A stretch of 64,000 bases of DNA from Minisyncoccota bacterium (GTDB lineage: Bacteria; Patescibacteriota; Microgenomatia; UBA1400; UBA12028). The stretch is taken from assembly GCA_016211945.1 (NCBI GenBank), contig JACRHV010000004.1:263472-327471 (forward strand). Direction: 5' to 3'. Below, in pieces: positions 20,799 to 57,660 of the stretch. Positions within the stretch are counted from its first letter, which is position 1. Each line of letters opens with the position of its first letter. Both the position numbers and the translations under genes were made by a program. The notes under the pieces were generated by a model, which had not been told where the DNA came from, searched no databases, and saw only the letters and a list, made by a program, of their open reading frames with translations.

Positions 20799-20904
20799 AG
20801 AGAAACATCTTCTTCTGTAGCGGATTGCATCAATCGTCTCATAATGAGATAATTGAACATATAAATGAGATGAAAGGAGGCCTTCCAAAGGTTGTAGATA
20901 TTTG

Positions 20905-21075
20905 AGCGTGTGGCCCAACATCTGTTGGGATACGAGGAATGGGTCTTTTACTCTGTAAAAGAAATCGGGCTTTTCTTTAATGAAAAGTATCTGCGGACAC
21001 CCATCGGTTGCTACAGTCGTAAGTTTTGTTTTAAATCTTTTCCGTAAGGAAAAGGACAGAGAACAGAAACACGTA
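20905..21075 (+). ncRNA. Putative glmS ribozyme (GlcN6P-responsive) in the glmS 5' UTR
   Basis: Begins AGCGUG. Conserved core ...GGGAUACGAGGAAUGGGUC (ACGAGGA as in UUGACGAGGA). GCGGACACCCAUCGG corresponds to GGCGGAUGCCUCCCGG, with AUGGGU/ACCCAU replacing GGAGG/CCUCC as a compensatory pair. ACAGUCGUAAG matches ACAGCCGUAAG. It lies 70 nt upstream of the glmS start. Confidence 0.6.
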
Positions 21076-21143
21076 GCCAAACCTTTATTCTTCATTTTTT
21101 TTCTTTTCTTTAACAGTGTTGAGCATTTTCACAAGGAGGTACT

Positions 21144-22910
21144 ATGTGTGGAGTTTTTGGATACATTGGTCATCGATCTAACGCAGCGTTATTGGTGTTT
21201 GAAGGATTAAAACGGTTGGAGTATCGCGGATATGATAGCTGGGGAGTTGTGGTTGTTGGTCGTGGAAAAATTTACGTGAAAAAGAAAACGGGGAAAATAG
21301 GTGGGGCAACAGTTGATGAGCTTCCACCTGGATCATTGGCAATCGGGCACACTCGATGGGCGACGCACGGCGGTGTGACGGAAAAAAACGCGCACCCACA
21401 CCTTGACTGTACACACACCATCGCAGTGATTCATAACGGCATTGTGGAAAATTACGAAAGCATACAAGCAGAATTGGTACACGCCGGACATCGTTTTGTG
21501 TCAGAAACTGATACCGAAATTATTGCTCATTTGTTGGAGTTTTATGCGCATAACATGTCATTTATTGAAGCGTTTGTGAAAACATTTCAGCGATTGGAGG
21601 GGCTCAATGCTATTGTAGCGATACATCATAAAGAAAGAGTTCTCGTCGCTGCAAAAAAGGGTTCTCCTCTTGTCATTGGTTTTGGAAAAAAAGAAAACTT
21701 TATTGCAAGTGATCCTTCCGCGCTTTTACCACATACAAAGGAAGTGTACTTTCTTGAGGATGGGCAGATGGCAGTTCTCCGTGATGCATCTGTTTCAGTG
21801 ATGGAGAGTGCGTCACAAAAGGTTGTGAAGTTTTCTACGCAAATTTTGGACTGGGATGTTTCTCAAACTCATAAAGGTGAGTTCCACCATTTCATGCTGA
21901 AAGAAATATATGAACAACCTCAAGTTGTTTTGGGTATTGCAGGAAGTGGAGGTGAGGAGGTTAAAAGGATTGTATCTTTGATACGGAAAACAAAAGATCT
22001 GTATTTTGTTGGATGCGGCTCAGCGTCTTACGCATGTTTAGCCGGAGCGTATCTTTTTTCAAAAATTGCTCAGAGGCGGGCGCATGCGATTGCTGGGAGT
22101 GAGTTTTTGTATCACCTGGATTTTATCAATACAAAAAGTGTTGTGGTGGCTTTATCCCAATCTGGAGAAACCATTGACACCTTAGAGTCTGTGTCTTATG
22201 CAAAAAGAAAGGGCGCGAAGATTGTGGCTTTGGTTAATGTCCTCGGATCCTCTCTGTATCGAGTAGCAGACGCGAAGATTTTGATAGGCGCTGGACCAGA
22301 AAAAGCGGTTGCATCAACAAAAGCTTTTATTGGCAAAATCGCGCATCTTATTTTGTTGGCGTACGCATTGGATAAACGAGTGAAGGAGGGGCAGGAATTG
22401 TTGCGTAAGTCCGCGGAGGTTATACGAGAGGTGTTGGCGGAAAAAAACAGCGATCGAATAAAGAAATTGGCGCATCGTATTTGCGGAGTGAACCACATTT
22501 TTATTCTTGGCAGAGGTCTTTCATATTCTGCAAGTTTAGAGTGTGCGATGAAGATCAAGGAAATCAGTTATATTCATGCCGAGGGTTTGGCGGCTGGAGA
22601 GCTGAAGCACGGCACCCTCGCCTTGGTTGAAAAGGGGACTCCGTGTATTGTCCTTCTCCCCAACGATGAGACGTATGCCGCAACATTGGCGGGAGCTATG
22701 GAGATCAAAGCGCGAGGCGGATATATCATTGGAATTTCACCAAAAAAAGAAGGTGTTTTTGATGAGTATTTGCCTATTGCCGATGTTGGAGATGCCAGCA
22801 TGATCCCCATGGTTGTTACCGGTCAACTCCTCGCATATTATTTGGCACTGGAACGAGGTCTTGACCCGGATATGCCGAGGAATTTGGCAAAGAGTGTGAC
22901 GGTGAGGTAG
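21144..22910 (+). CDS. glmS: glutamine--fructose-6-phosphate aminotransferase
   Basis: N-terminal MCGVFGYIG (Ntn Cys2), two SIS domains, 588 aa; preceded by AAGGAGGTACT. Confidence 0.9.
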   Translation: MCGVFGYIGHRSNAALLVFEGLKRLEYRGYDSWGVVVVGRGKIYVKKKTGKIGGATVDELPPGSLAIGHTRWATHGGVTEKNAHPHLDCTHTIAVIHNGIVENYESIQAELVHAGHRFVSETDTEIIAHLLEFYAHNMSFIEAFVKTFQRLEGLNAIVAIHHKERVLVAAKKGSPLVIGFGKKENFIASDPSALLPHTKEVYFLEDGQMAVLRDASVSVMESASQKVVKFSTQILDWDVSQTHKGEFHHFMLKEIYEQPQVVLGIAGSGGEEVKRIVSLIRKTKDLYFVGCGSASYACLAGAYLFSKIAQRRAHAIAGSEFLYHLDFINTKSVVVALSQSGETIDTLESVSYAKRKGAKIVALVNVLGSSLYRVADAKILIGAGPEKAVASTKAFIGKIAHLILLAYALDKRVKEGQELLRKSAEVIREVLAEKNSDRIKKLAHRICGVNHIFILGRGLSYSASLECAMKIKEISYIHAEGLAAGELKHGTLALVEKGTPCIVLLPNDETYAATLAGAMEIKARGGYIIGISPKKEGVFDEYLPIADVGDASMIPMVVTGQLLAYYLALERGLDPDMPRNLAKSVTVR

Positions 22911-22925
22911 AAAGAGTTAAAAATT

Positions 22926-23243
22926 TTAACCAATTATAATCATCTTTTCATCAACTGCTTTGTCCAATACATCTCGACCGAATTTTCGGGCAATGAGCAT
23001 TGCATCCCCAGTGAGTACTCTATTTGCTTGGGGGCTTTTTATAACAACACCTTGTTTTGCCTGTTCAAACGCCTCCGAAAAAAGCCTCCAACGATCATTA
23101 AAATTTTCCTTATTGATGGGTAGCACTGGCTCAATTACTCGAGTATCTATTGAATGTCTTATTCTAAGAGTTCCATTTCCAACTTGACCTAGCCCGACTC
23201 CATCAAGTTCGTGGCGTGTACCATCTGCTTCATTAGTTGACAT
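22926..23243 (-). CDS. hypothetical protein (about 105 aa)
   Basis: Track ORF 22926..23276. The internal ATG (MSTNEADG...) is preceded by AAGGAG and preferred. Convergent with glmS. Confidence 0.3.
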   Translation of the reverse strand: MSTNEADGTRHELDGVGLGQVGNGTLRIRHSIDTRVIEPVLPINKENFNDRWRLFSEAFEQAKQGVVIKSPQANRVLTGDAMLIARKFGRDVLDKAVDEKMIIIG

Positions 23244-23320
23244 AGTAAACTCCTTACTTTTTTTAGATGAAGACATTGTATCACCTAAGTGGAATTAAGT
23301 GTGATAAAAAGCGCTTTTTG

Positions 23321-23394
23321 TGACCCCATCCGGATTTGAACCGGAGATCTTCAGGATGAGAACCTGACGTCCTAGGCCGCTAGACGATGGGGCC
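23321..23394 (-). tRNA. tRNA-Glu (anticodon CUC)
   Basis: Hand-folded cloverleaf of 74 nt. Acceptor GGCCCCA/UGGGGUC, D-stem GUCU/GGAC, anticodon stem UCAGG/CCUGA with loop UUCUCAU, T-arm UCCGG-UUCAAAU-CCGGA, discriminator A. CCA not encoded. Confidence 0.85.
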
Positions 23395-23473
23395 AATACC
23401 AAACTTCTCTGGAATTATACACGAAATCTAGTTACTTTCCATCGCTCCACATCAGGAAAATCGCAGTTTGTTT

Positions 23474-23509
23474 TTTGTAAGCTAATTGTAAGATTCGGCT
23501 GATACAGTG
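23474..23509 (+). promoter_or_regulatory. Conserved 36-nt element, copy 1 (TTTGTAAGCTAATTGTAAGATTCG + GCTGATACAGTG)
   Basis: 24/24 nt identical and 8/12 of the next 12 identical to the sequence at 56166-56201. Contains the tandem heptamer TTGTAAG-N4-TTGTAAG and a TAAGAT -10-like hexamer. Ends 6 nt before the ATG at 23515. Lies about 80 nt from the 5' end of the divergent tRNA-Glu. Confidence 0.5.
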
Positions 23510-23514
23510 CTTCT

Positions 23515-24594
23515 ATGAAACTCCTCATTCTTCTTGTATTCTTTTTTGTTTTTCCATCCATAACGCACGCATACTTCACAACATTCGAAACACTACTCAA
23601 CAATACGGTCTCTGTTCTCGACTGGATCCCGCCACAAACATTTCTCTACATTCAATCTCCCACAAACGAACAAAAACACATTGAGGAGCTCATCATAAAC
23701 AACACATTTGATGCTGATCTCACTGGCTGGGAAACGAGTGGACATATTTTTATTCCGGAAAAGGGAGTTGTCCAGCTTGGATCAAAAGATGACACAACCG
23801 AAGGTGTACACACTTTACGTCAAACGATTCCATCTACAGCACAAGCACTCACGTTTTCATATCGCATAGGAACGCAGGAAACACTTGAGGGATTTGATGA
23901 TCCTGCATTTGTTGTAACACTAAACACTACACCAGTGTTTTCTGCATCATGGAAAGATGCATCTGAGAACTGGAGAACCGCCTCTATTAATCTTTCAGAA
24001 TTTTCTGATCCTATACTAATACTCCAATTTTCTGTTCAAAATACCGGAGATGCGCTTAACCCCACTTGGGTTCAACTAAAAAATATCACCACAAACATTG
24101 GACTCGTCAATACGACACAAAAACTTTCTTTTTCAACTTCTGATGCGCATCCAACACAGACCTATACACAAGAATCGTCAGACGCACTTCCACAACTTTA
24201 CCGCAATCCCTTTTCGTTCACACAAACTTTAGAGAAAAATATGCTGCATTTTTGGAGCATTGATCAAGAAAATAATAATGAAATACCACAAGAAAAATCC
24301 ATTTTCTTCAATCAGACCCCACCTCCTCCTTTCACCATCCTCTCTCTTGATCACCAACCGCACGATGAATATGTTTTCACAATAGCAAATGAACAAGGCA
24401 GACCAGGGAATCAAACCGCGTACACACTTCACCTGCCAAATCAAAACATTCATCCGTTTGCCCTGGATTATCCCGACGATCACACCGAGCGATTATTCTT
24501 TCGCTTCCCTCCAAATCACATCCCCACCCAAGCCTCACTTGAATACCGTGATTCATTTGGGAACACAGCACAAAAGGAAAACATTCTCTTATGA
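23515..24594 (+). CDS. secreted protein with an N-terminal CBM-like (jelly-roll) segment
   Basis: Signal peptide MKLLILLVFFFVFPSITHA. NNTFDADLTGWETSGHIF...VQLG resembles the start of CBM4/9/22-type carbohydrate-binding modules. N/T/Q-rich thereafter. The stop overlaps the next ATG (ATGA). Confidence 0.45.
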   Translation: MKLLILLVFFFVFPSITHAYFTTFETLLNNTVSVLDWIPPQTFLYIQSPTNEQKHIEELIINNTFDADLTGWETSGHIFIPEKGVVQLGSKDDTTEGVHTLRQTIPSTAQALTFSYRIGTQETLEGFDDPAFVVTLNTTPVFSASWKDASENWRTASINLSEFSDPILILQFSVQNTGDALNPTWVQLKNITTNIGLVNTTQKLSFSTSDAHPTQTYTQESSDALPQLYRNPFSFTQTLEKNMLHFWSIDQENNNEIPQEKSIFFNQTPPPPFTILSLDHQPHDEYVFTIANEQGRPGNQTAYTLHLPNQNIHPFALDYPDDHTERLFFRFPPNHIPTQASLEYRDSFGNTAQKENILL

Positions 24595-25241
24595 ATGAAA
24601 ACTCATCCCAAACCATCCGACTTAAACACGGTGAAACAAAAGATGTCGCGATTCGCATACATAACACTTTTCAACGAAAAGCAAACGCCGCGGTAGAACT
24701 CGTTTCATACAAAGAATCAACACCTTTTTTATCAAAAAATATTACAATTTCTATTCGCCAGTCGCCGGAATCAGAAGCTCTTATATATGGGCCTGCAACA
24801 TTCGCTGAGTTTGCAAGTCAGGGATATACAGTGTTGGAAACATTGGAACCAGGAGAAATTCGGCAATACATTCTACAAACTTCTCTTAACGCAAACACTC
24901 CAAACACTTTTCAAGATCATTCGCTCACTTACGACTTCCGTTTGGGGACAGAGGAACTTTTACCACCACCATCTCCAACATCTCAAATCGCATTTATTTC
25001 TCCTCCATTTTCATCTCCCATACTTTCGGCAACGGCAAAAATAATACGCCAATCTCCTTCTCCCTCACCAAATCCTGCTTTTTCCCTTCAGGTCCTCGGC
25101 GCCACATCACAATCTACAAGTCTCCGAGCGTCTCCTTATCAAAAACCGTCGTCGTTCCTTTTTATTTTCATTCTTTTTGTTGCTTCGCTTCTTTTCCTTC
25201 TCGTTCTGCGTGACTATGTCCGTCACCGTAAACAGCCGTGA
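24591..25241 (+). CDS. cell-surface protein: no signal peptide, S/P-rich linker, C-terminal TM plus basic tail
   Basis: Ends ...PSSFLFIFILFVASLLFLLVLRDYVRHRKQP (TM + RHRK). The N-terminal 120 aa show a beta-rich pattern with loose resemblance to TasA/camelysin-type domains (QDHSLTYDFRLG). Translationally coupled to the upstream secreted protein. Confidence 0.4.
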   Translation: MNENSSQTIRLKHGETKDVAIRIHNTFQRKANAAVELVSYKESTPFLSKNITISIRQSPESEALIYGPATFAEFASQGYTVLETLEPGEIRQYILQTSLNANTPNTFQDHSLTYDFRLGTEELLPPPSPTSQIAFISPPFSSPILSATAKIIRQSPSPSPNPAFSLQVLGATSQSTSLRASPYQKPSSFLFIFILFVASLLFLLVLRDYVRHRKQP

Positions 25242-25293
25242 TACGCTACAGTAAACCACTTGAGAATCTTTTTGGATCCGCTATCATGAATAC

Positions 25294-26145
25294 ATGATCT
25301 CTGTGCTTGCCCATCTTTTCACACCACAGCACTCCAATCATCAGCGACCCCGAATTCTTCATCCGGAGGGATTTGTCGTTCTCATCGCCATTGCACTCAG
25401 TGCGCAAGTTTTTATTACCAGACTCGTTCCAGTTACTCCTTTTGAAAAAATATTAGGATATTCATCAAGCATTACTGCTTCACAAGTCCTCGAAGAAACA
25501 AACAATAAACGAAAAAACGAAGGACTTCCACCTCTCACATTGAATGAGAAACTCTCAAACGCTGCAGTGGCAAAAGCAACGTACATGTTTGACCACCAAT
25601 ATTGGTCGCACACAGCACCGGATGGCACAACGCCATGGAACTTCATTCAAAAATCTGGGTATTTATACAATATCGCCGGTGAAAATCTTGCACGAGATTT
25701 CGGAGACACTACAAGCATGATTTCAGCATGGATGAACTCTCCAACGCACAGAGCAAACATTCTTCAAAAAAAATACAGTGATATCGGCATCGCCGTTCTT
25801 GACGGAAAACTCCAAGGAATAGAGACAACACTCGTTGTTCAAATGTTTGGCTCACCATCCATCGTTCAAGCAAAAACGAGTGATGAGGGGGCAACACACA
25901 CATTCAGCAATGCGTCTGTTCTCGCGGACGTGAGTACATCACTTCCTATGTATTCCCCGCATGATTTAACACGGGCAGTATCGTTCGCCATCGTTCTGCT
26001 CCTCGTGTACATTCTTGCGTATGATATGGTTGTTGCGCGTCGAAAAAATGTAGTTCGTGTTGTTGGAAAAAACCTCGCACATATTCTTCTTTTTAGCGTG
26101 ATCTTCGGCATTCTTCTCATATCACAGGGGGGGTCGTTGTTATGA
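25294..26145 (+). CDS. CAP/SCP-like extracellular domain protein (YkwD-like) with a C-terminal membrane anchor
   Basis: NKRKNEGLPPLTLNEKLSNAAVAKATYMFDHQYWSHTAPDG...ISAWMNSPTHRANILQKKYSDIGIAV matches a CAP domain. N-terminal TM and a C-terminal hydrophobic segment. Confidence 0.6.
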   Translation: MISVLAHLFTPQHSNHQRPRILHPEGFVVLIAIALSAQVFITRLVPVTPFEKILGYSSSITASQVLEETNNKRKNEGLPPLTLNEKLSNAAVAKATYMFDHQYWSHTAPDGTTPWNFIQKSGYLYNIAGENLARDFGDTTSMISAWMNSPTHRANILQKKYSDIGIAVLDGKLQGIETTLVVQMFGSPSIVQAKTSDEGATHTFSNASVLADVSTSLPMYSPHDLTRAVSFAIVLLLVYILAYDMVVARRKNVVRVVGKNLAHILLFSVIFGILLISQGGSLL

Positions 26146-26402
26146 TCCGTGAGTTCACAAAACATCCTGGAGATTATATTGCCCTATTGTCCGTCTTAGG
26201 TGGATTTGTTTTTGCATACTTTTGGTTAGAGCAAAGTCTCGTGATAAAACAAGGTTTATTTGCGGGATTGGGGTGCGCGTACTTTGCGTGGGGCCTGATG
26301 CATCACAAGCTTCATCACACACTCACGGCTCGTGTTGTGTTAGAATATTTTTTCGTCAGTCTGCTCGCAACAACACTCGTTATGCTTGTTACTGTGCGGT
26401 AG
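26142..26402 (+). CDS. small membrane protein (86 aa)
   Basis: ORF-track entry. Two or three predicted TM helices. ATGA overlap with the CAP gene. Confidence 0.35.
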   Translation: MIREFTKHPGDYIALLSVLGGFVFAYFWLEQSLVIKQGLFAGLGCAYFAWGLMHHKLHHTLTARVVLEYFFVSLLATTLVMLVTVR

Positions 26403-26417
26403 CACAAAGGGAGTTTT

Positions 26418-27137
26418 ATGAGAGGAATTATTCTCGCAGGAGGAGCAGGAACACGATTGTCACCGCTCACGAAGGTGACGAGTAAGCAACTTCTCCCTAT
26501 TTACAATAAACCGATGATTTACTTCCCATTGGAGACGTTGCTCCAGGCGGGTATTCGCGAAATTTTAGTTATTGTTGCACCGGATCATGCTGGAGATTTT
26601 GTGAAACTCCTTGGGAGTGGGAAAGAGTTTGGATGCAAAATCAGCTATGAGGTCCAAGACAAGCCCAACGGACTTGCGGAAGCGTTCATCATCGCAGAAA
26701 ACTTTTTAGACAAGGAAAATGTTGCGCTTATACTCGGTGATAATTTGTTCGAGGATGATTTCATTGAGCCAGTTCGACGATTTAAATCAGGTGCGCTGGT
26801 TTTTGCTTCACGCGTGCCCGACCCAGAGCGTTTTGGCGTCGTTGAGTTTGATCAAAATAAAAAAGTCATTTCCATTATTGAAAAACCAAAAGAGCCGAAA
26901 TCGGACTATGCCGTTACTGGACTCTATGTCTACGACAACGCCGTTGTCCAAAAGGCAAAATCATTGCAACCATCGTCACGTGGTGAACTAGAGATCACTG
27001 ACCTAAATACTCTTTATTTGAGCGAAGGAACGTTAGAGGTTGCATTTGTTCAAGGAAAATGGCTTGATACAGGAACATTTGAGGCGCTGTACCAAGCAAC
27101 AGAGTTTGTTCGAACAAAAGAACTTCAAGAAAAGTAA
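26418..27137 (+). CDS. sugar-1-phosphate nucleotidyltransferase (short RmlA/GlmU-N-like)
   Basis: MRGIILAGGAGTRLSPLT G-rich loop and ALILGDNLF motif. 239 aa. AAGGGAG SD. Confidence 0.7.
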   Translation: MRGIILAGGAGTRLSPLTKVTSKQLLPIYNKPMIYFPLETLLQAGIREILVIVAPDHAGDFVKLLGSGKEFGCKISYEVQDKPNGLAEAFIIAENFLDKENVALILGDNLFEDDFIEPVRRFKSGALVFASRVPDPERFGVVEFDQNKKVISIIEKPKEPKSDYAVTGLYVYDNAVVQKAKSLQPSSRGELEITDLNTLYLSEGTLEVAFVQGKWLDTGTFEALYQATEFVRTKELQEK

Positions 27138-27142
27138 GAGAC

Positions 27143-27949
27143 ATGAAAAAACGCTACATTATCTTTCTCATCATTCTCTTTTATAGTGCTGGATTTCTTC
27201 GTATAACACAGGCACAAACCGAACCGCCGATAGCACCGCCTCAACTCGAAATATCAAAACAGCAGTACATTCAGTCTTTGGATGTCTACAGAGAGAAAGA
27301 ACAAAAATTCCTCATTTCAAGAGAGCAGTATAATCAACTACAAACACTTGCTTCCTTAGAAGAGGTTGTTCGTACATCAAAAGATGTTCAACTTGCACGC
27401 ATGGATACACTCACAGCGTACTTTAATACATTGTTGCTATCAATCCAAAATCTCAAAGGTGCGGAAATAACGAAAAAGGCTAATCAAGGACAGTTACTTC
27501 AAACAGCTCTCGTTGAGATTGAACGACAGCGCAATACGATCCTCACAAGTAATGACAGGGTTACATTAGACAAAACTTCTGCGAATTACGACGATAAACA
27601 AGGCGCGTTTTCATCCATTGCGTATTCTTCACTCGCTTTAATAAAGATTTCAAATATTCAGTCTGCAACTGATCAGCTTGGTGTACTTACAGGAGAGGTG
27701 TACACCTCGATCCAAGAATCATCTCCTTCAGCAACAATTTTTGCGGAAAAACAACGCGGGTATGATGAGTTAGCGAGAACTATTGAAACAATAAAGATGT
27801 CGACAAAAAAAGCAACACAACAGTACGATAATATTTCTGGTAGAGATCTTTTTACACAGGGAGCATACGCCCAAATCGTGGAAACATTGGGGACTGGGTA
27901 TGCAAAATTAAAGCAAGGAGAGAGTTTCATTCAGGAGTTAGCTCAATGA
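27143..27949 (+). CDS. secreted coiled-coil protein
   Basis: Signal peptide MKKRYIIFLIILFYSAGFLRITQA. Q/L-rich heptad-like sequence throughout. Confidence 0.4.
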   Translation: MKKRYIIFLIILFYSAGFLRITQAQTEPPIAPPQLEISKQQYIQSLDVYREKEQKFLISREQYNQLQTLASLEEVVRTSKDVQLARMDTLTAYFNTLLLSIQNLKGAEITKKANQGQLLQTALVEIERQRNTILTSNDRVTLDKTSANYDDKQGAFSSIAYSSLALIKISNIQSATDQLGVLTGEVYTSIQESSPSATIFAEKQRGYDELARTIETIKMSTKKATQQYDNISGRDLFTQGAYAQIVETLGTGYAKLKQGESFIQELAQ

Positions 27950-28323
27950 ACGACAGCGAAAACCAAACACAATTTATCGAAGAACAACCGATGTTGCAGC
28001 AGGAAAAATCTGTTACTGCTATTCCTACTCCGCCAATTGACTCCCTTATTCCAGAAAAAAAACAGTTTCCGATAAAAAAAGTTTTTGTATTCGGCGGTGG
28101 AGTATGTTTGCTTCTTTTTATTCTGGTTCTCATGGTAATGGGCAAAGGGAAAAATAGTCTGAAGATTACCGAGCCATCTCCCTCACCAAAAACTACCCAA
28201 CAACTCAGTGACTTTCAAAAGTCTTTACAGCTTTTCCATACCGATGTGGAACGCGCAGACCCAACAGTGAATGATCTTCCCTATCCACCAGTGAATACCA
28301 ATCTCTATATTATTCAGCGCTAA
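27946..28323 (+). CDS. single-pass membrane protein (125 aa)
   Basis: Central TM (VFVFGGGVCLLLFILVLMVMG). ATGA coupling to the upstream ORF. Confidence 0.35.
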   Translation: MNDSENQTQFIEEQPMLQQEKSVTAIPTPPIDSLIPEKKQFPIKKVFVFGGGVCLLLFILVLMVMGKGKNSLKITEPSPSPKTTQQLSDFQKSLQLFHTDVERADPTVNDLPYPPVNTNLYIIQR

Positions 28324-55974: not shown

Positions 55975-56017
55975 ACATCAAGATTATCCTAAGTGGGTCG
56001 ATTTATCAATCCTTTTG

Positions 56018-56090
56018 TCGGGGTGGTGAGACTCGAACTCACGACCTCCGCACCCCCAGCGCGGCGCTCTACCAACTAAGCCACACCCCG
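56018..56090 (-). tRNA. tRNA-Pro (anticodon GGG)
   Basis: 73-nt cloverleaf. Acceptor CGGGGUG/CACCCCG (C1:G72 as typical for tRNA-Pro), anticodon stem CCGCG/UGCGG with loop CUGGGGG, T-arm GUGAG-UUCGAGU-CUCAC, discriminator A. Confidence 0.8.
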
Positions 56091-56165
56091 AACTTTTGAC
56101 ATTCTACCACGCCCCTAAATTTTCTGATTATTACGTAGTCTCACTCAAGAAAAACCACTTTCCCT

Positions 56166-56201
56166 TTTGTAAGCTAATTGTAAGATTCGCGTGATATTGT
56201 A
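56166..56201 (+). promoter_or_regulatory. Conserved 36-nt element, copy 2 (TTTGTAAGCTAATTGTAAGATTCG + CGTGATATTGTA)
   Basis: Near-identical to 23474-23509. Ends 8 nt before the ATG at 56210. About 75 nt from the 5' end of the divergent tRNA-Pro. Confidence 0.5.
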
Positions 56202-56209
56202 TCTGCAGA

Positions 56210-56425
56210 ATGAAAATATATTCTGACCATATTCCTCATACTATATTTCAGCCGACGCGAGGAATGACGTTGTATTTTTACGACATAAGTAAACTTTTCT
56301 TCGGTGGATTTTTTCTTACGGGTATTCTTCAGGGGTATTTTTTCTATGCTATGATGGGAATAATCTTATCGATTCTCGTCTTTGTTGTAGCAAAATATTT
56401 GGAGGTTTTATGTGGGAATCCGTGA
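56210..56425 (+). CDS. small membrane protein (71 aa)
   Basis: ORF-track entry. Two hydrophobic helices (LFFGGFFLTGILQGYFFYAMMGIILSILVFVVA). Confidence 0.3.
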   Translation: MKIYSDHIPHTIFQPTRGMTLYFYDISKLFFGGFFLTGILQGYFFYAMMGIILSILVFVVAKYLEVLCGNP

Positions 56426-56544
56426 TAAAAGATTTAACAAGTGTTCCCGTTGTTATGGCATTGGGAATGACGTTTTTCCTCATGGTTTTTGCAAGCATGA
56501 CTACATACGTCGCACACAAGGACCGTGAAAAACTAAAGAAATAA
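56410..56544 (+). CDS. small membrane protein (44 aa)
   Basis: ATG preceded by TTGGAGGTTTT. Translation MWESVIKDLTSVPVVMALGMTFFLMVFASMTTYVAHKDREKLKK. Not in the ORF track. Overlaps the end of the 71-aa ORF by 16 nt. Confidence 0.3.
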   Translation: MWESVIKDLTSVPVVMALGMTFFLMVFASMTTYVAHKDREKLKK

Positions 56545-56574: not shown

Positions 56575-57660
56575 ATGCCGCCAACAAAAACAGTAACGCA
56601 AGTAAAACATGACGATTCACCTCAAGTATCGTTGAAGAATCAACGACTCCAGGCTGTTGCTATTGCAATGCAACAGATCGATAAAACGTACGGCAAGGGA
56701 TCAATCATGAAGTTGGGCGAGCGTATGCAAAATCAAGAAGTTATCCCAACAATCTCCACAGGATCTATTGCACTTGACGTTGCGCTCGGCGTTGGAGGTC
56801 TTCCTCGAGGGAGAATTGTTGAGATCTATGGACCGGAGGCCTCGGGAAAAACAACGGTTTGTCTTCATGTTATTGCAGAAGCACAAAAGCATGGTGGCAC
56901 TGTCGCGTTTATCGATGCTGAACATGCGCTCGACCCACAACGTGCGGAAGAAATCGGCGTGAATCTCGATGAACTCCTCATTTCTCAGCCAGACAATGGG
57001 GAACAGGCACTTGAGATCACCGAAACACTTATTCGTTCCGGTGGAGTAGATGTCATTGTTGTGGACTCGGTGGCGGCACTCGTTCCAAAAGCAGAACTTG
57101 AGGGAGATATGGGCGATGCTGTCATGGGCATGCAAGCACGCCTGATGTCCCAAGCACTGCGCAAACTGACCGCCGCCATCAGTAAGTCAAAAACACTGCT
57201 CATCTTCACAAATCAACTCCGCATGAAAATTGGTGTGATGTTTGGCAACCCAGAAACAACAACTGGTGGACAAGCGTTAAAGTTTTACTGCTCTGTTCGC
57301 ATAGATATGAGAAAAATTGGGAATATTCAAGAGGGTGACGTTATTGTGGGAGGGCGGCACAGAGCAAAAATTGTAAAGAATAAAGTAGCTCCTCCATTCC
57401 GCACCGCAGAGTTTGACATCATGAATAAAGGAGGAATATCAAAATCTGGAAGCGTTGTTGATGTTGCCGCAGAGCTTGGGATTCTCGAGAAAGCGGGAAG
57501 TTTCTTCAAATATAAAGGTAATGTGCTCGCTCAGGGTCGTGAAGCACTCAAGCTAGAACTCGAGAAAAACTCAAAACTACTTCTTGAATTAGAAAGCACT
57601 ATTCGTGAAAAAATTAAGCTCGGAAATATGCCTCGAGATGTTAAAGAAAAGATTGATTAA
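56575..57660 (+). CDS. recA: recombinase RecA
   Basis: GPEASGKTT Walker [24 protein letters not shown] loop L2 region, 361 aa. Confidence 0.95.

Follow-up and report, generated by a model that had tools for sequence, protein, structure and literature searches.

In a 64,000-nt stretch of contig JACRHV010000004.1 (hereafter the window), we studied a locus of four co-directional open reading frames (ORFs), g1 to g4, for which the databases give the gene names HZA34_02345 and HZA34_02350 in a Candidatus Pacebacteria metagenome-assembled genome (MAG). Its first two genes encode an adhesin-like protein with a signal peptide (g1) and a signal-less, membrane-anchored protein (g2). Our analysis suggests that the pair is a conserved, translationally coupled and fast-evolving two-protein cell-surface module of this Pacebacteria lineage of the candidate phyla radiation (CPR), in which g1 would be tethered to the cell by donor-strand complementation with g2. 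We put the probability of this reading as a whole, tethering step included, at roughly 0.45. A cell-surface role had been proposed in a preliminary description of the same DNA and is still the best reading of the locus. Even when read conservatively, our results correct that first interpretation: the g1-g2 pair is not a broken gene, g2 is not a sortase substrate, and the locus is probably not a single four-gene operon.

Members of the CPR, or Patescibacteria, are ultra-small and mostly uncultured, and many of them are thought to live attached to a host by means of proteins that are largely unknown. As a surface module evolving far faster than its neighbours, the g1-g2 pair is a concrete and testable candidate for such attachment. 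To our knowledge, experimental work on the TasA/TapA donor-strand system has been confined to Firmicutes and archaea. Should our reading hold, donor-strand complementation would extend from the building of fibres to tethering at the cell surface, and this would explain how organisms that seem to have no sortase signals on proteins of this kind retain their adhesins.

The four ORFs are all genuine, with the coordinates (Table 1) and the ATGA stop/start overlaps, at g1/g2 and at g3/g4, that had been reported from the sequence. The preliminary description had also regarded g1 and g2 as one surface protein split into two polypeptides, and had asked for a check for a frameshift or sequencing indel at the junction; neither idea is borne out. 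An independent Logan assembly of the same organism (L002) is identical to the window over 5,394 nt, g1/g2 split included. A g1 homologue immediately followed by a g2 homologue was moreover found in ten other loci from different samples (L001, L003-L007, L009-L011, and L008, a second short contig with the same g1 protein as L007), at protein identities to the window ranging from 61-64% down to 23-35%. The two genes are thus co-conserved, as had been expected, in 10/10 loci of the clade, and their ORFs abut or overlap by 1-4 nt in every locus through four junction types (ATGA in most loci; GTGA, TAATG and TAA-ATG in one each). A g2-like region occurs in none of the 150 listed g1 relatives (166 were found), the six g2 clusters in a collection of 5.8 billion proteins all measure 212-217 aa, and a concatenated g1+g2 query retrieved only g1 and one orthologue, with no fused protein.

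Because the independent assembly is identical, the abutting split is recurrent and no fused homologue was found, a sequencing error, a pseudogene or programmed recoding are all very unlikely, and the comparison argues for two genuine genes joined by ordinary termination-reinitiation coupling. The only point in favour of an indel, from assembly or sequencing, that would have broken one ordinary surface-protein gene is that the first ORF bears the signal peptide and the second the anchor; this explanation is refuted by the identical assembly, by the split in ten loci with four junction variants, and by the purifying selection acting on both ORFs (dN/dS 0.25 for g1 and 0.13 for g2, and below 1 for every gene of the locus). 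If programmed frameshifting or readthrough of the stop codon joined at least part of the g1-g2 product into a single chain, the g1 signal peptide would export an anchored fusion; this would explain why g2 has no signal peptide, and ORFs that always abut or overlap by a few nucleotides are compatible with it. We nevertheless find it far-fetched: the frame relation varies among loci (-1 for ATGA, GTGA and TAATG, in-frame for the TAA ATG of L007), no slippery heptamer is present at any g1/g2 junction examined, and purine-rich (GGAG/AGGA-like) stretches located 8-15 nt upstream of several g2 starts fit termination-reinitiation, to which the lack of fused homologues among the relatives and clusters above is to be added.

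The view of a single split protein is further weakened by distant CPR genomes, in which the g2-like gene either stands alone, three genes ahead of the g1-like one, and encodes a signal peptide of its own, or is absent, the CAP gene then directly following the g1-like gene. In L013, the order is tRNA-Glu, a g2 homologue with signal peptide, an S49 peptidase, a TasA-like gene, a g1-like gene and CAP. L012 displays a complete TasA-like protein (sub-threshold PF12389 match), a SipW-like S26 peptidase, a g1-like gene and CAP. L016 carries a SipW fusion followed by a 544-aa protein in which, by reading of the sequence, a signal peptide, a core resembling TasA, an EVLG motif and transmembrane segments (TMs) at the C-terminus can be recognised. 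Since these genomes carry the same blocks in other orders, g1-like and g2-like genes are, as far as gene order can tell, independent families that were later juxtaposed, not halves of one gene.

The evolutionary rate of the pair was estimated by comparing the window with its closest relative (L001). Nucleotide identity, which is about 82-94% (mostly 85-92%) in the flanks, falls to 59-82% (mostly 59-71%) exactly over positions 23517-25294, i.e. from the g1 start codon to the g2-g3 spacer. Protein identity is 61% for g1 and 63% for g2, versus 87-97% for g3 (94%), g4 (91%) and the three genes that follow (rmlA, g6 and g7). Likewise, the nonsynonymous divergence (dN) amounts to 0.27 in g1 and 0.26 in g2 versus 0.02-0.06 in the flanking genes, the synonymous divergence (dS) to 1.1 and about 2 versus about 0.45-0.97, and the dN/dS ratios of 0.25 and 0.13 given above compare with 0.02-0.12. 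Overall positive selection was rejected, as no dN/dS exceeds 1 and both dS and dN are raised. Because dS is raised alongside dN, the pattern points to old alleles or recombinational replacement of the cassette, combined with relaxed or diversifying constraint. By these measures, replacement or diversification of the cassette far outpaces that of the neighbouring genes, as one would expect of a structure exposed to hosts or phages. Fast-changing, weakly constrained cassettes are typical of exposed surface structures.

That gene 1 encodes a secreted CBM-like protein had been proposed from its sequence and is supported at the fold level. Although g1 has no significant match in Pfam or NCBIfam, a full HMMER scan gathered 166 family representatives, 24 of which were used to build an AlphaFold2 model with a mean predicted local distance difference test (pLDDT) score of 87.6 and a predicted template modelling (pTM) score of 0.79. 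The best Foldseek matches of this model are the MAM-Ig-FN ectodomains of PTPRK/PTPmu (E 2.5e-7 to 1.7e-5), followed by CBM61, CBM27, CBM28 and CBM4 (E 1-2e-3). An OmpL47-type surface-protein domain is matched by 10/24 family members, and distant members carry InhA-like MAM, CBM_4_9, FN3 and LTD domains, InhA-like MAM and CBM_4_9 Pfam domains being combined in P0149. The modelled protein is a secreted adhesin-like rod made of a MAM/CBM-type jelly-roll, an Ig-like and an FN3-like domain, for which glycan binding is a possibility by fold only.

Residues 20-40 of g1 lie outside this fold and form the flexible strand with which the mature protein would begin (AYFTTFETLLNNTVSVLDW); the family-wide pattern of this N-terminus is AYF..fe.lp.N.l...DWTPP. 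By reading, it resembles a SipW-class N-terminus, the AYFTD.. of CPR TasA-like proteins, and the spacing of F21, F24 and V32 resembles that of F29, I32 and F39 in the TasA donor strand (TasA residues from PMC9674648). The N-terminus of a distant homologue (P0029) matches PF12389 at E 2.7e-4, with 21.3 bits for a cut-off of 22.5, and some distant members of the family have a camelysin-type N-terminus or are fused to an S26 signal peptidase. Such fusions also deserve mention on their own account: in P0087, P0023 and L016 (160-1290), from other CPR lineages, a SipW-like S26 peptidase domain is fused N-terminally to g1-like, LTD or 'GTCS' surface-protein domains, an unusual fusion of the peptidase-substrate type.

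The g2 family alignment features a 124-aa domain, a hypervariable stalk rich in proline, serine and threonine (P/S/T), a short motif, one TM and a basic tail. This agrees with the earlier view of g2 as tightly coupled to g1 and equipped with a stalk and a C-terminal anchor. The g2 of the window has no hydrophobic N-terminus, and none of the ten loci encodes a g2 with a signal peptide. AlphaFold2 predicts the head as an eight-stranded sandwich (pLDDT 78-91), for which Foldseek returned weak and mixed jelly-roll matches in the PDB, AbpA (7ueg_A) ranking 11th with E 4.8e-3; a Levivirus-coat match (E 0.04-0.1) was dismissed as noise. A clearer signal came from hhalign: when the g2 family (11 sequences) was compared with a TasA-like profile, built from B. 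subtilis TasA (sequence verified against the PDB) and two CPR camelysin-like proteins of related loci, the two aligned in the expected register over 111 columns (87% probability, E 4.1e-6), whereas a control against the g1 family gave 6% and E 6e-3. TasA alone aligns with g2 only around the LKPGD strand, and a tblastn comparison of a CPR camelysin-like protein with the window gives g2 as its best match (E 0.005). The L013 homologue (L013_203), which shares the stalk, an ILG motif, the TM and the basic tail and has a signal peptide in addition, aligned with the g2 family with 94% probability and E 1.3e-7. The g2 core is thus probably a divergent domain of the TasA/camelysin type.

The aligned region, g2 residues 7-118 against profile positions 29-150, lies entirely beyond the donor strand, and g2 starts at about the equivalent of TasA residue 50, just past the TasA signal peptide and donor strand. 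The donor strand of TasA consists of its residues 28-38, and in the monomer the groove is self-complemented by residues 48-61 (PMC9674648).

Mechanistically, we propose that g1 would be exported by its own signal peptide and would expose, as its mature N-terminus, a free strand of the TasA/TapA 'SipW class'. In this scheme, g2 would be an acceptor-only TasA-like subunit lacking the donor strand, carried on its stalk and held by the C-terminal TM and a cytoplasmic basic tail, and g1 would be the donor-only subunit, analogous to TapA or AbpB. Insertion of the g1 strand into the g2 β-sandwich would then tether the adhesin to the cell without a sortase. In L012 and L013, where complete TasA-like subunits are encoded, g1-type and g2-type proteins could cap the two ends of a fibre.

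Parts of this scheme have a precedent in known systems, from which the locus also departs. The N-terminal strand of TapA is donated to TasA (PMC10151520, PMC9674648). Compared with the TasA/TapA/SipW system of Bacillus subtilis (PF12389; PDB 8AUR, 5OF1), g2 lacks the signal peptide and donor strand, stays below every Pfam threshold and, unlike the soluble, secreted TasA, possesses a P/S/T stalk and a C-terminal TM, while the MAM/CBM, Ig and FN3 domains of g1 are unrelated to the TapA fold. No fibre is implied here, the minimum being a 1:1 anchor-adhesin pair. The archaeal bundling pili of Pyrobaculum calidifontis (AbpA/AbpB; PDB 7UEG) are likewise based on a TasA-like jelly-roll subunit and donor-strand complementation; AbpB, proposed to be a strand-donating adhesin that provides the first strand and bears distal β-domains, would have the role that we propose for g1, and TasA (PF12389) homologues have been reported in Patescibacteria (PMC9245690). 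However, g2 matches AbpA with a structural score that is weak and non-specific, AbpA carries a signal peptide and forms polymers, and no membrane-anchored acceptor-only subunit is described in that system. Chaperone-usher pili (FimH, PapG) follow the same logic, in that acceptor-only and donor-only subunits fix the end positions, but their proteins are unrelated, the locus has no usher or chaperone, the CPR envelope is monoderm-like, and the acceptor-only subunit would here be the anchor instead of the tip. The locus would belong to TasA-related surface machinery, with an anchored, donor-less subunit paired with an adhesin-like donor.

Several results weigh against this reading. When a g1(20-45)-g2 chimera was modelled as a single chain by AlphaFold, the peptide remained undocked with pLDDT <50, and the N-terminus of g2 itself formed the first strand; this outcome mirrors the self-complemented monomeric TasA, and is a negative result all the same. 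As the chimera gave no docking, the donor-strand step is one that we infer. In 10/10 loci, g2 has no signal peptide, though its 185-aa N-terminal region would need export, and synteny within one clade is no proof that g1 and g2 interact physically. The relationship to TasA is also distant: neither the g2 family profile nor g2 alone matches anything in Pfam, NCBIfam or the sequences of the PDB, PF12389 is matched neither by g2 at E<=1 nor by any of eight g2-family members at E<=10, and the support from the TasA-like profile is moderate, as it comprises only three sequences, two of them from CPR proteins whose PF12389 matches are sub-threshold. On the g1 side, TIGR04088 is not matched by g1 itself at E<=1, and is matched by just 1/24 family members (E 0.056). 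Finally, and in contrast to the B. subtilis system, the 64-kb window holds neither a SipW-like peptidase (searched by S26 motif and tblastn) nor a complete TasA-like gene; among the distant loci, L012 and L016 do encode a SipW-type peptidase.

The lack of a g2 signal peptide raises the question of topology. As a tail-anchored protein, g2 could keep its jelly-roll head and stalk in the cytoplasm, with no contact with exported g1 outside the cell; it could then act near the membrane on the g1 precursor, as a chaperone or assembly factor, or have an unrelated role, coupling merely setting the stoichiometry. In that case, the idea of a surface complex would be wrong for g2. Such a topology would agree with the absence of a signal peptide or an alternative upstream start in the g2 frame in 10/10 loci, with a single TM at the extreme C-terminus, as in tail-anchored proteins inserted post-translationally, and with a head whose AlphaFold model is complete on its own. 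We consider it doubtful, because the tail is rich in K/R/H in 9/9 complete g2 proteins, which under the positive-inside rule would place the tail in the cytoplasm and the head outside. A long P/S/T stalk like this one is typically found where a protein spans the cell wall, heads homologous to that of g2 and borne on the same stalk and anchor have signal peptides elsewhere (in L013 and, by reading, L016), and g2 diverges as fast as the secreted g1 while its TM and tail stay conserved. Under a head-out topology, a signal-less g2 that apparently faces outwards is a small, well-defined protein-export puzzle.

The preliminary description had likened the C-terminus of g2 to a sortase/exosortase-type sorting signal. 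Indeed, g2 shares with LPXTG sortase and PEP-CTERM/PGF-CTERM substrates a low-complexity stalk, a hydrophobic segment and a basic tail, but it does not belong to these classes: LPXTG is absent from g2 and from the window ORFs of at least 80 aa, direct reading revealed no PEP or PGF motif before the C-terminal TM in the nine complete g2 proteins, and no ORF of the 64-kb window contains a sortase TLxTC motif or is an exosortase candidate (regular-expression search only). The short motif of the stalk, (Q/E/I)VL(G/A/S), could instead be a new kind of sorting signal, cut or transferred by a sortase-like enzyme or a protease so as to release the g2 head or attach it to the wall. V168 and L169 are invariant in six aligned g2 sequences amid a hypervariable low-complexity stalk, a V/I-L-G/A/S motif is found in 9/9 complete g2 proteins, the succession of motif, TM and basic tail recalls sorting signals, and similar VLG/ILG motifs adjoin TMs in CAP as well as in further CPR surface proteins that related loci encode. 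We nonetheless judge this improbable, as the distance from motif to TM varies from 8 to 26 residues, which sets it apart from LPXTG or PEP signals, tripeptides of the VLG type often arise by chance, no candidate enzyme emerged from the window in the search just described, and g2 has no signal peptide. All sortase substrates that we know of have one. Motifs of the (V/I)LG type near TMs include, besides the QVLG of g2, an ILG (25450-25458) and a VLA (~25918-25926) in g3, and others in an FN3 protein of L012, in L013 protein(s) and in the 544-aa TasA-like protein of L016; this recurrent motif could be a processing or interaction motif, or a chance occurrence of a common tripeptide.

Returning to tethering by donor-strand complementation, a bolder version would hold that the TasA fibre system gave rise in CPR bacteria to a minimal device for anchoring without sortase, in which g2 permanently captures the g1 strand, the hypervariable pair is swapped, and g2 is exported without a signal peptide. 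We regard this extended version as unlikely. If it were true, the swapped g1-g2 pair could set host or surface specificity, and a signal-less g2 outside the cell would imply that a C-terminally anchored protein can be exported by a route not yet described, which might require g2 to be translated in tight coupling with a Sec substrate, or to stay unfolded until complemented.

The preliminary description saw the four genes as a single operon driven from a conserved element at 23474-23509. The element itself is nearly invariant relative to L001 although its flanks vary, and a promoter at this place is plausible, by consensus only. By reading, it contains TTGTAAG twice, followed by an extended -10-like TGaTACAGT that ends 6 nt before the g1 ATG, and TTGTnA ... 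TAnnnT motifs are found 6-8 nt before the g1 ATG in other loci. It is thus probably the g1 promoter, and the short distance from the -10-like motif to the ATG suggests a leaderless mRNA or one with a very short leader. Control of all four genes from this element is less tenable, as the 52-nt gap between g2 and g3 holds another promoter-like site, TTGAGA-16-TATCAT, scored 10/12 in a promoter scan and ending 6 nt before the g3 ATG. Both hexamers are found in L001 and similar ones in L010, and the TTGAGA part is also present in L009 and L011. This site is likely to be the start of a second transcription unit. Given this conserved site and the sharp difference in evolutionary rate between g1-g2 and g3-g4, the locus probably comprises two transcription units, which contradicts the single four-gene operon.

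The window contains one further occurrence of the 21-25 nt core of the g1 upstream element. This second, identical 25-nt copy (56165-56190; TTTTGTAAGCTAATTGTAAGATTCG) is located ~75 nt from a minus-strand tRNA-Pro (56017-56090), as the g1 copy is from tRNA-Glu, and ~20 nt before the ATG of an unannotated hydrophobic ORF of ~71 aa (56211-56426), which lies upstream of recA (56575-57660).

Downstream of the cassette, the CAP protein and small membrane protein recognised in the preliminary description were both recovered. g3 contains a bona fide CAP domain (PF00188, E 1.2e-19, 71.8 bits for a cut-off of 21.1) and scores 108 bits against the TIGR02909 YkwD model, below its cut-off of 171 bits. Unlike other bacterial CAP/SCP (YkwD-like) proteins, g3 has its domain flanked by TMs, one N-terminal (a signal anchor) and two C-terminal by reading of the sequence, and is paired with the 86-aa g4; unlike g1 and g2, it evolves slowly. 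Genome and metagenome scans with the CAP protein yielded distant relatives only (40-46% identity). By reading, g4 is strongly hydrophobic, its sole library match being a faint one to the C-terminus of DUF5656, and it always follows CAP in the distant CPR loci L015-L019. After g4, rmlA, g6 and g7 continue in the same direction with gaps of 15, 5 and -4 nt. The CAP-g4-rmlA-g6-g7 order of the window (25294-28323) is kept in L015 (5983-9360) and L017 (5986-10923), with or without a g1-like gene upstream. Because this string recurs in distant CPR loci, CAP-g4, together with rmlA, g6 and g7, is by gene order an older, separate conserved envelope module that adjoins the g1-g2 cassette, not part of the g1-g2 unit. 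The L015 contig (JACKFW010000001.1) is titled 'Pseudomonadales bacterium isolate HK-STAS-PATE-15', yet has the CPR-type order g1-like-CAP-g4-rmlA-g6-g7; it looks like a Patescibacteria MAG filed under the wrong taxon.

Table 1. Features of the g1-g4 locus and adjoining genes, in window coordinates
Feature	Residues	Position	Strand	Basis or remark
tRNA-Glu(CTC)		23320..23394	-	ARAGORN and Rfam; conserved left boundary of the locus
Conserved upstream element, candidate g1 promoter		23471..23509	+	Near-invariant relative to L001
g1, secreted adhesin-like protein	359 aa	23515..24594	+	
g1 signal peptide	1-19	23515-23571	+	MKLLILLVFFFVFPSITHA followed by YF; helix in the AlphaFold2 model
g1 disordered N-terminal strand, TasA/TapA-like by reading	20-40	23572-23634	+	Coil, pLDDT 61-73
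g1 MAM/CBM-like jelly-roll	~41-200	23635-24114	+	
g1 Ig-like (OmpL47-type) domain	~201-270	24115-24324	+	
g1 FN3-like domain	~271-359	24325-24591	+	
g2, signal-less membrane-anchored protein	216 aa	24591..25241	+	
g2 jelly-roll core, probably TasA-like	1-124	24591-24962	+	
g2 P/S/T-rich stalk	125-186	24963-25148	+	
g2 QVLG motif in stalk	167-170	25089-25100	+	
g2 TM	188-206	25152-25208	+	
g2 basic tail RDYVRHRKQP		25209-25238	+	
Promoter-like site TTGAGA-16-TATCAT		25260..25287	+	Upstream of g3
g3, CAP/SCP protein	283 aa	25294..26145	+	
g3 CAP domain	66-172	25489-25809	+	Pfam
g4, small hydrophobic membrane protein	86 aa	26142..26402	+	
rmlA-like nucleotidyltransferase		26418-27137	+	NTP_transferase Pfam annotation in related loci
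g6, secreted helical protein		27143-27949	+	ORF call
g7, membrane protein		27946-28323	+	ORF call

On the other side of the cassette, g1 has tRNA-Glu directly upstream in six related loci (L004, L005, L006, L007, L009 and L011), and in L013 this tRNA is upstream of the g2-like gene that bears a signal peptide. Two of these loci, L004 (852-2405) and L007 (1081-2610), harbour a gene for a large serine recombinase with Resolvase, Recombinase and Zn_ribbon_recom domains, which is absent from the window. The gene adjoins tRNA-Glu at its 3' end, the side not facing g1, and is probably part of a mobile element integrated at the tRNA. These recombinases were considered as a direct driver of cassette exchange and rejected: as they lie beyond tRNA-Glu, as expected for a tRNA-integrated element, they are not directly linked to the exchange. 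In the window, a 116-aa minus-strand ORF without Pfam or NCBIfam match (22926-23276) separates tRNA-Glu from glmS (21144-22910), which is directly preceded on its 5' side by a glmS ribozyme/riboswitch (Rfam RF00234, 56.9 bits) at 20894-21080.

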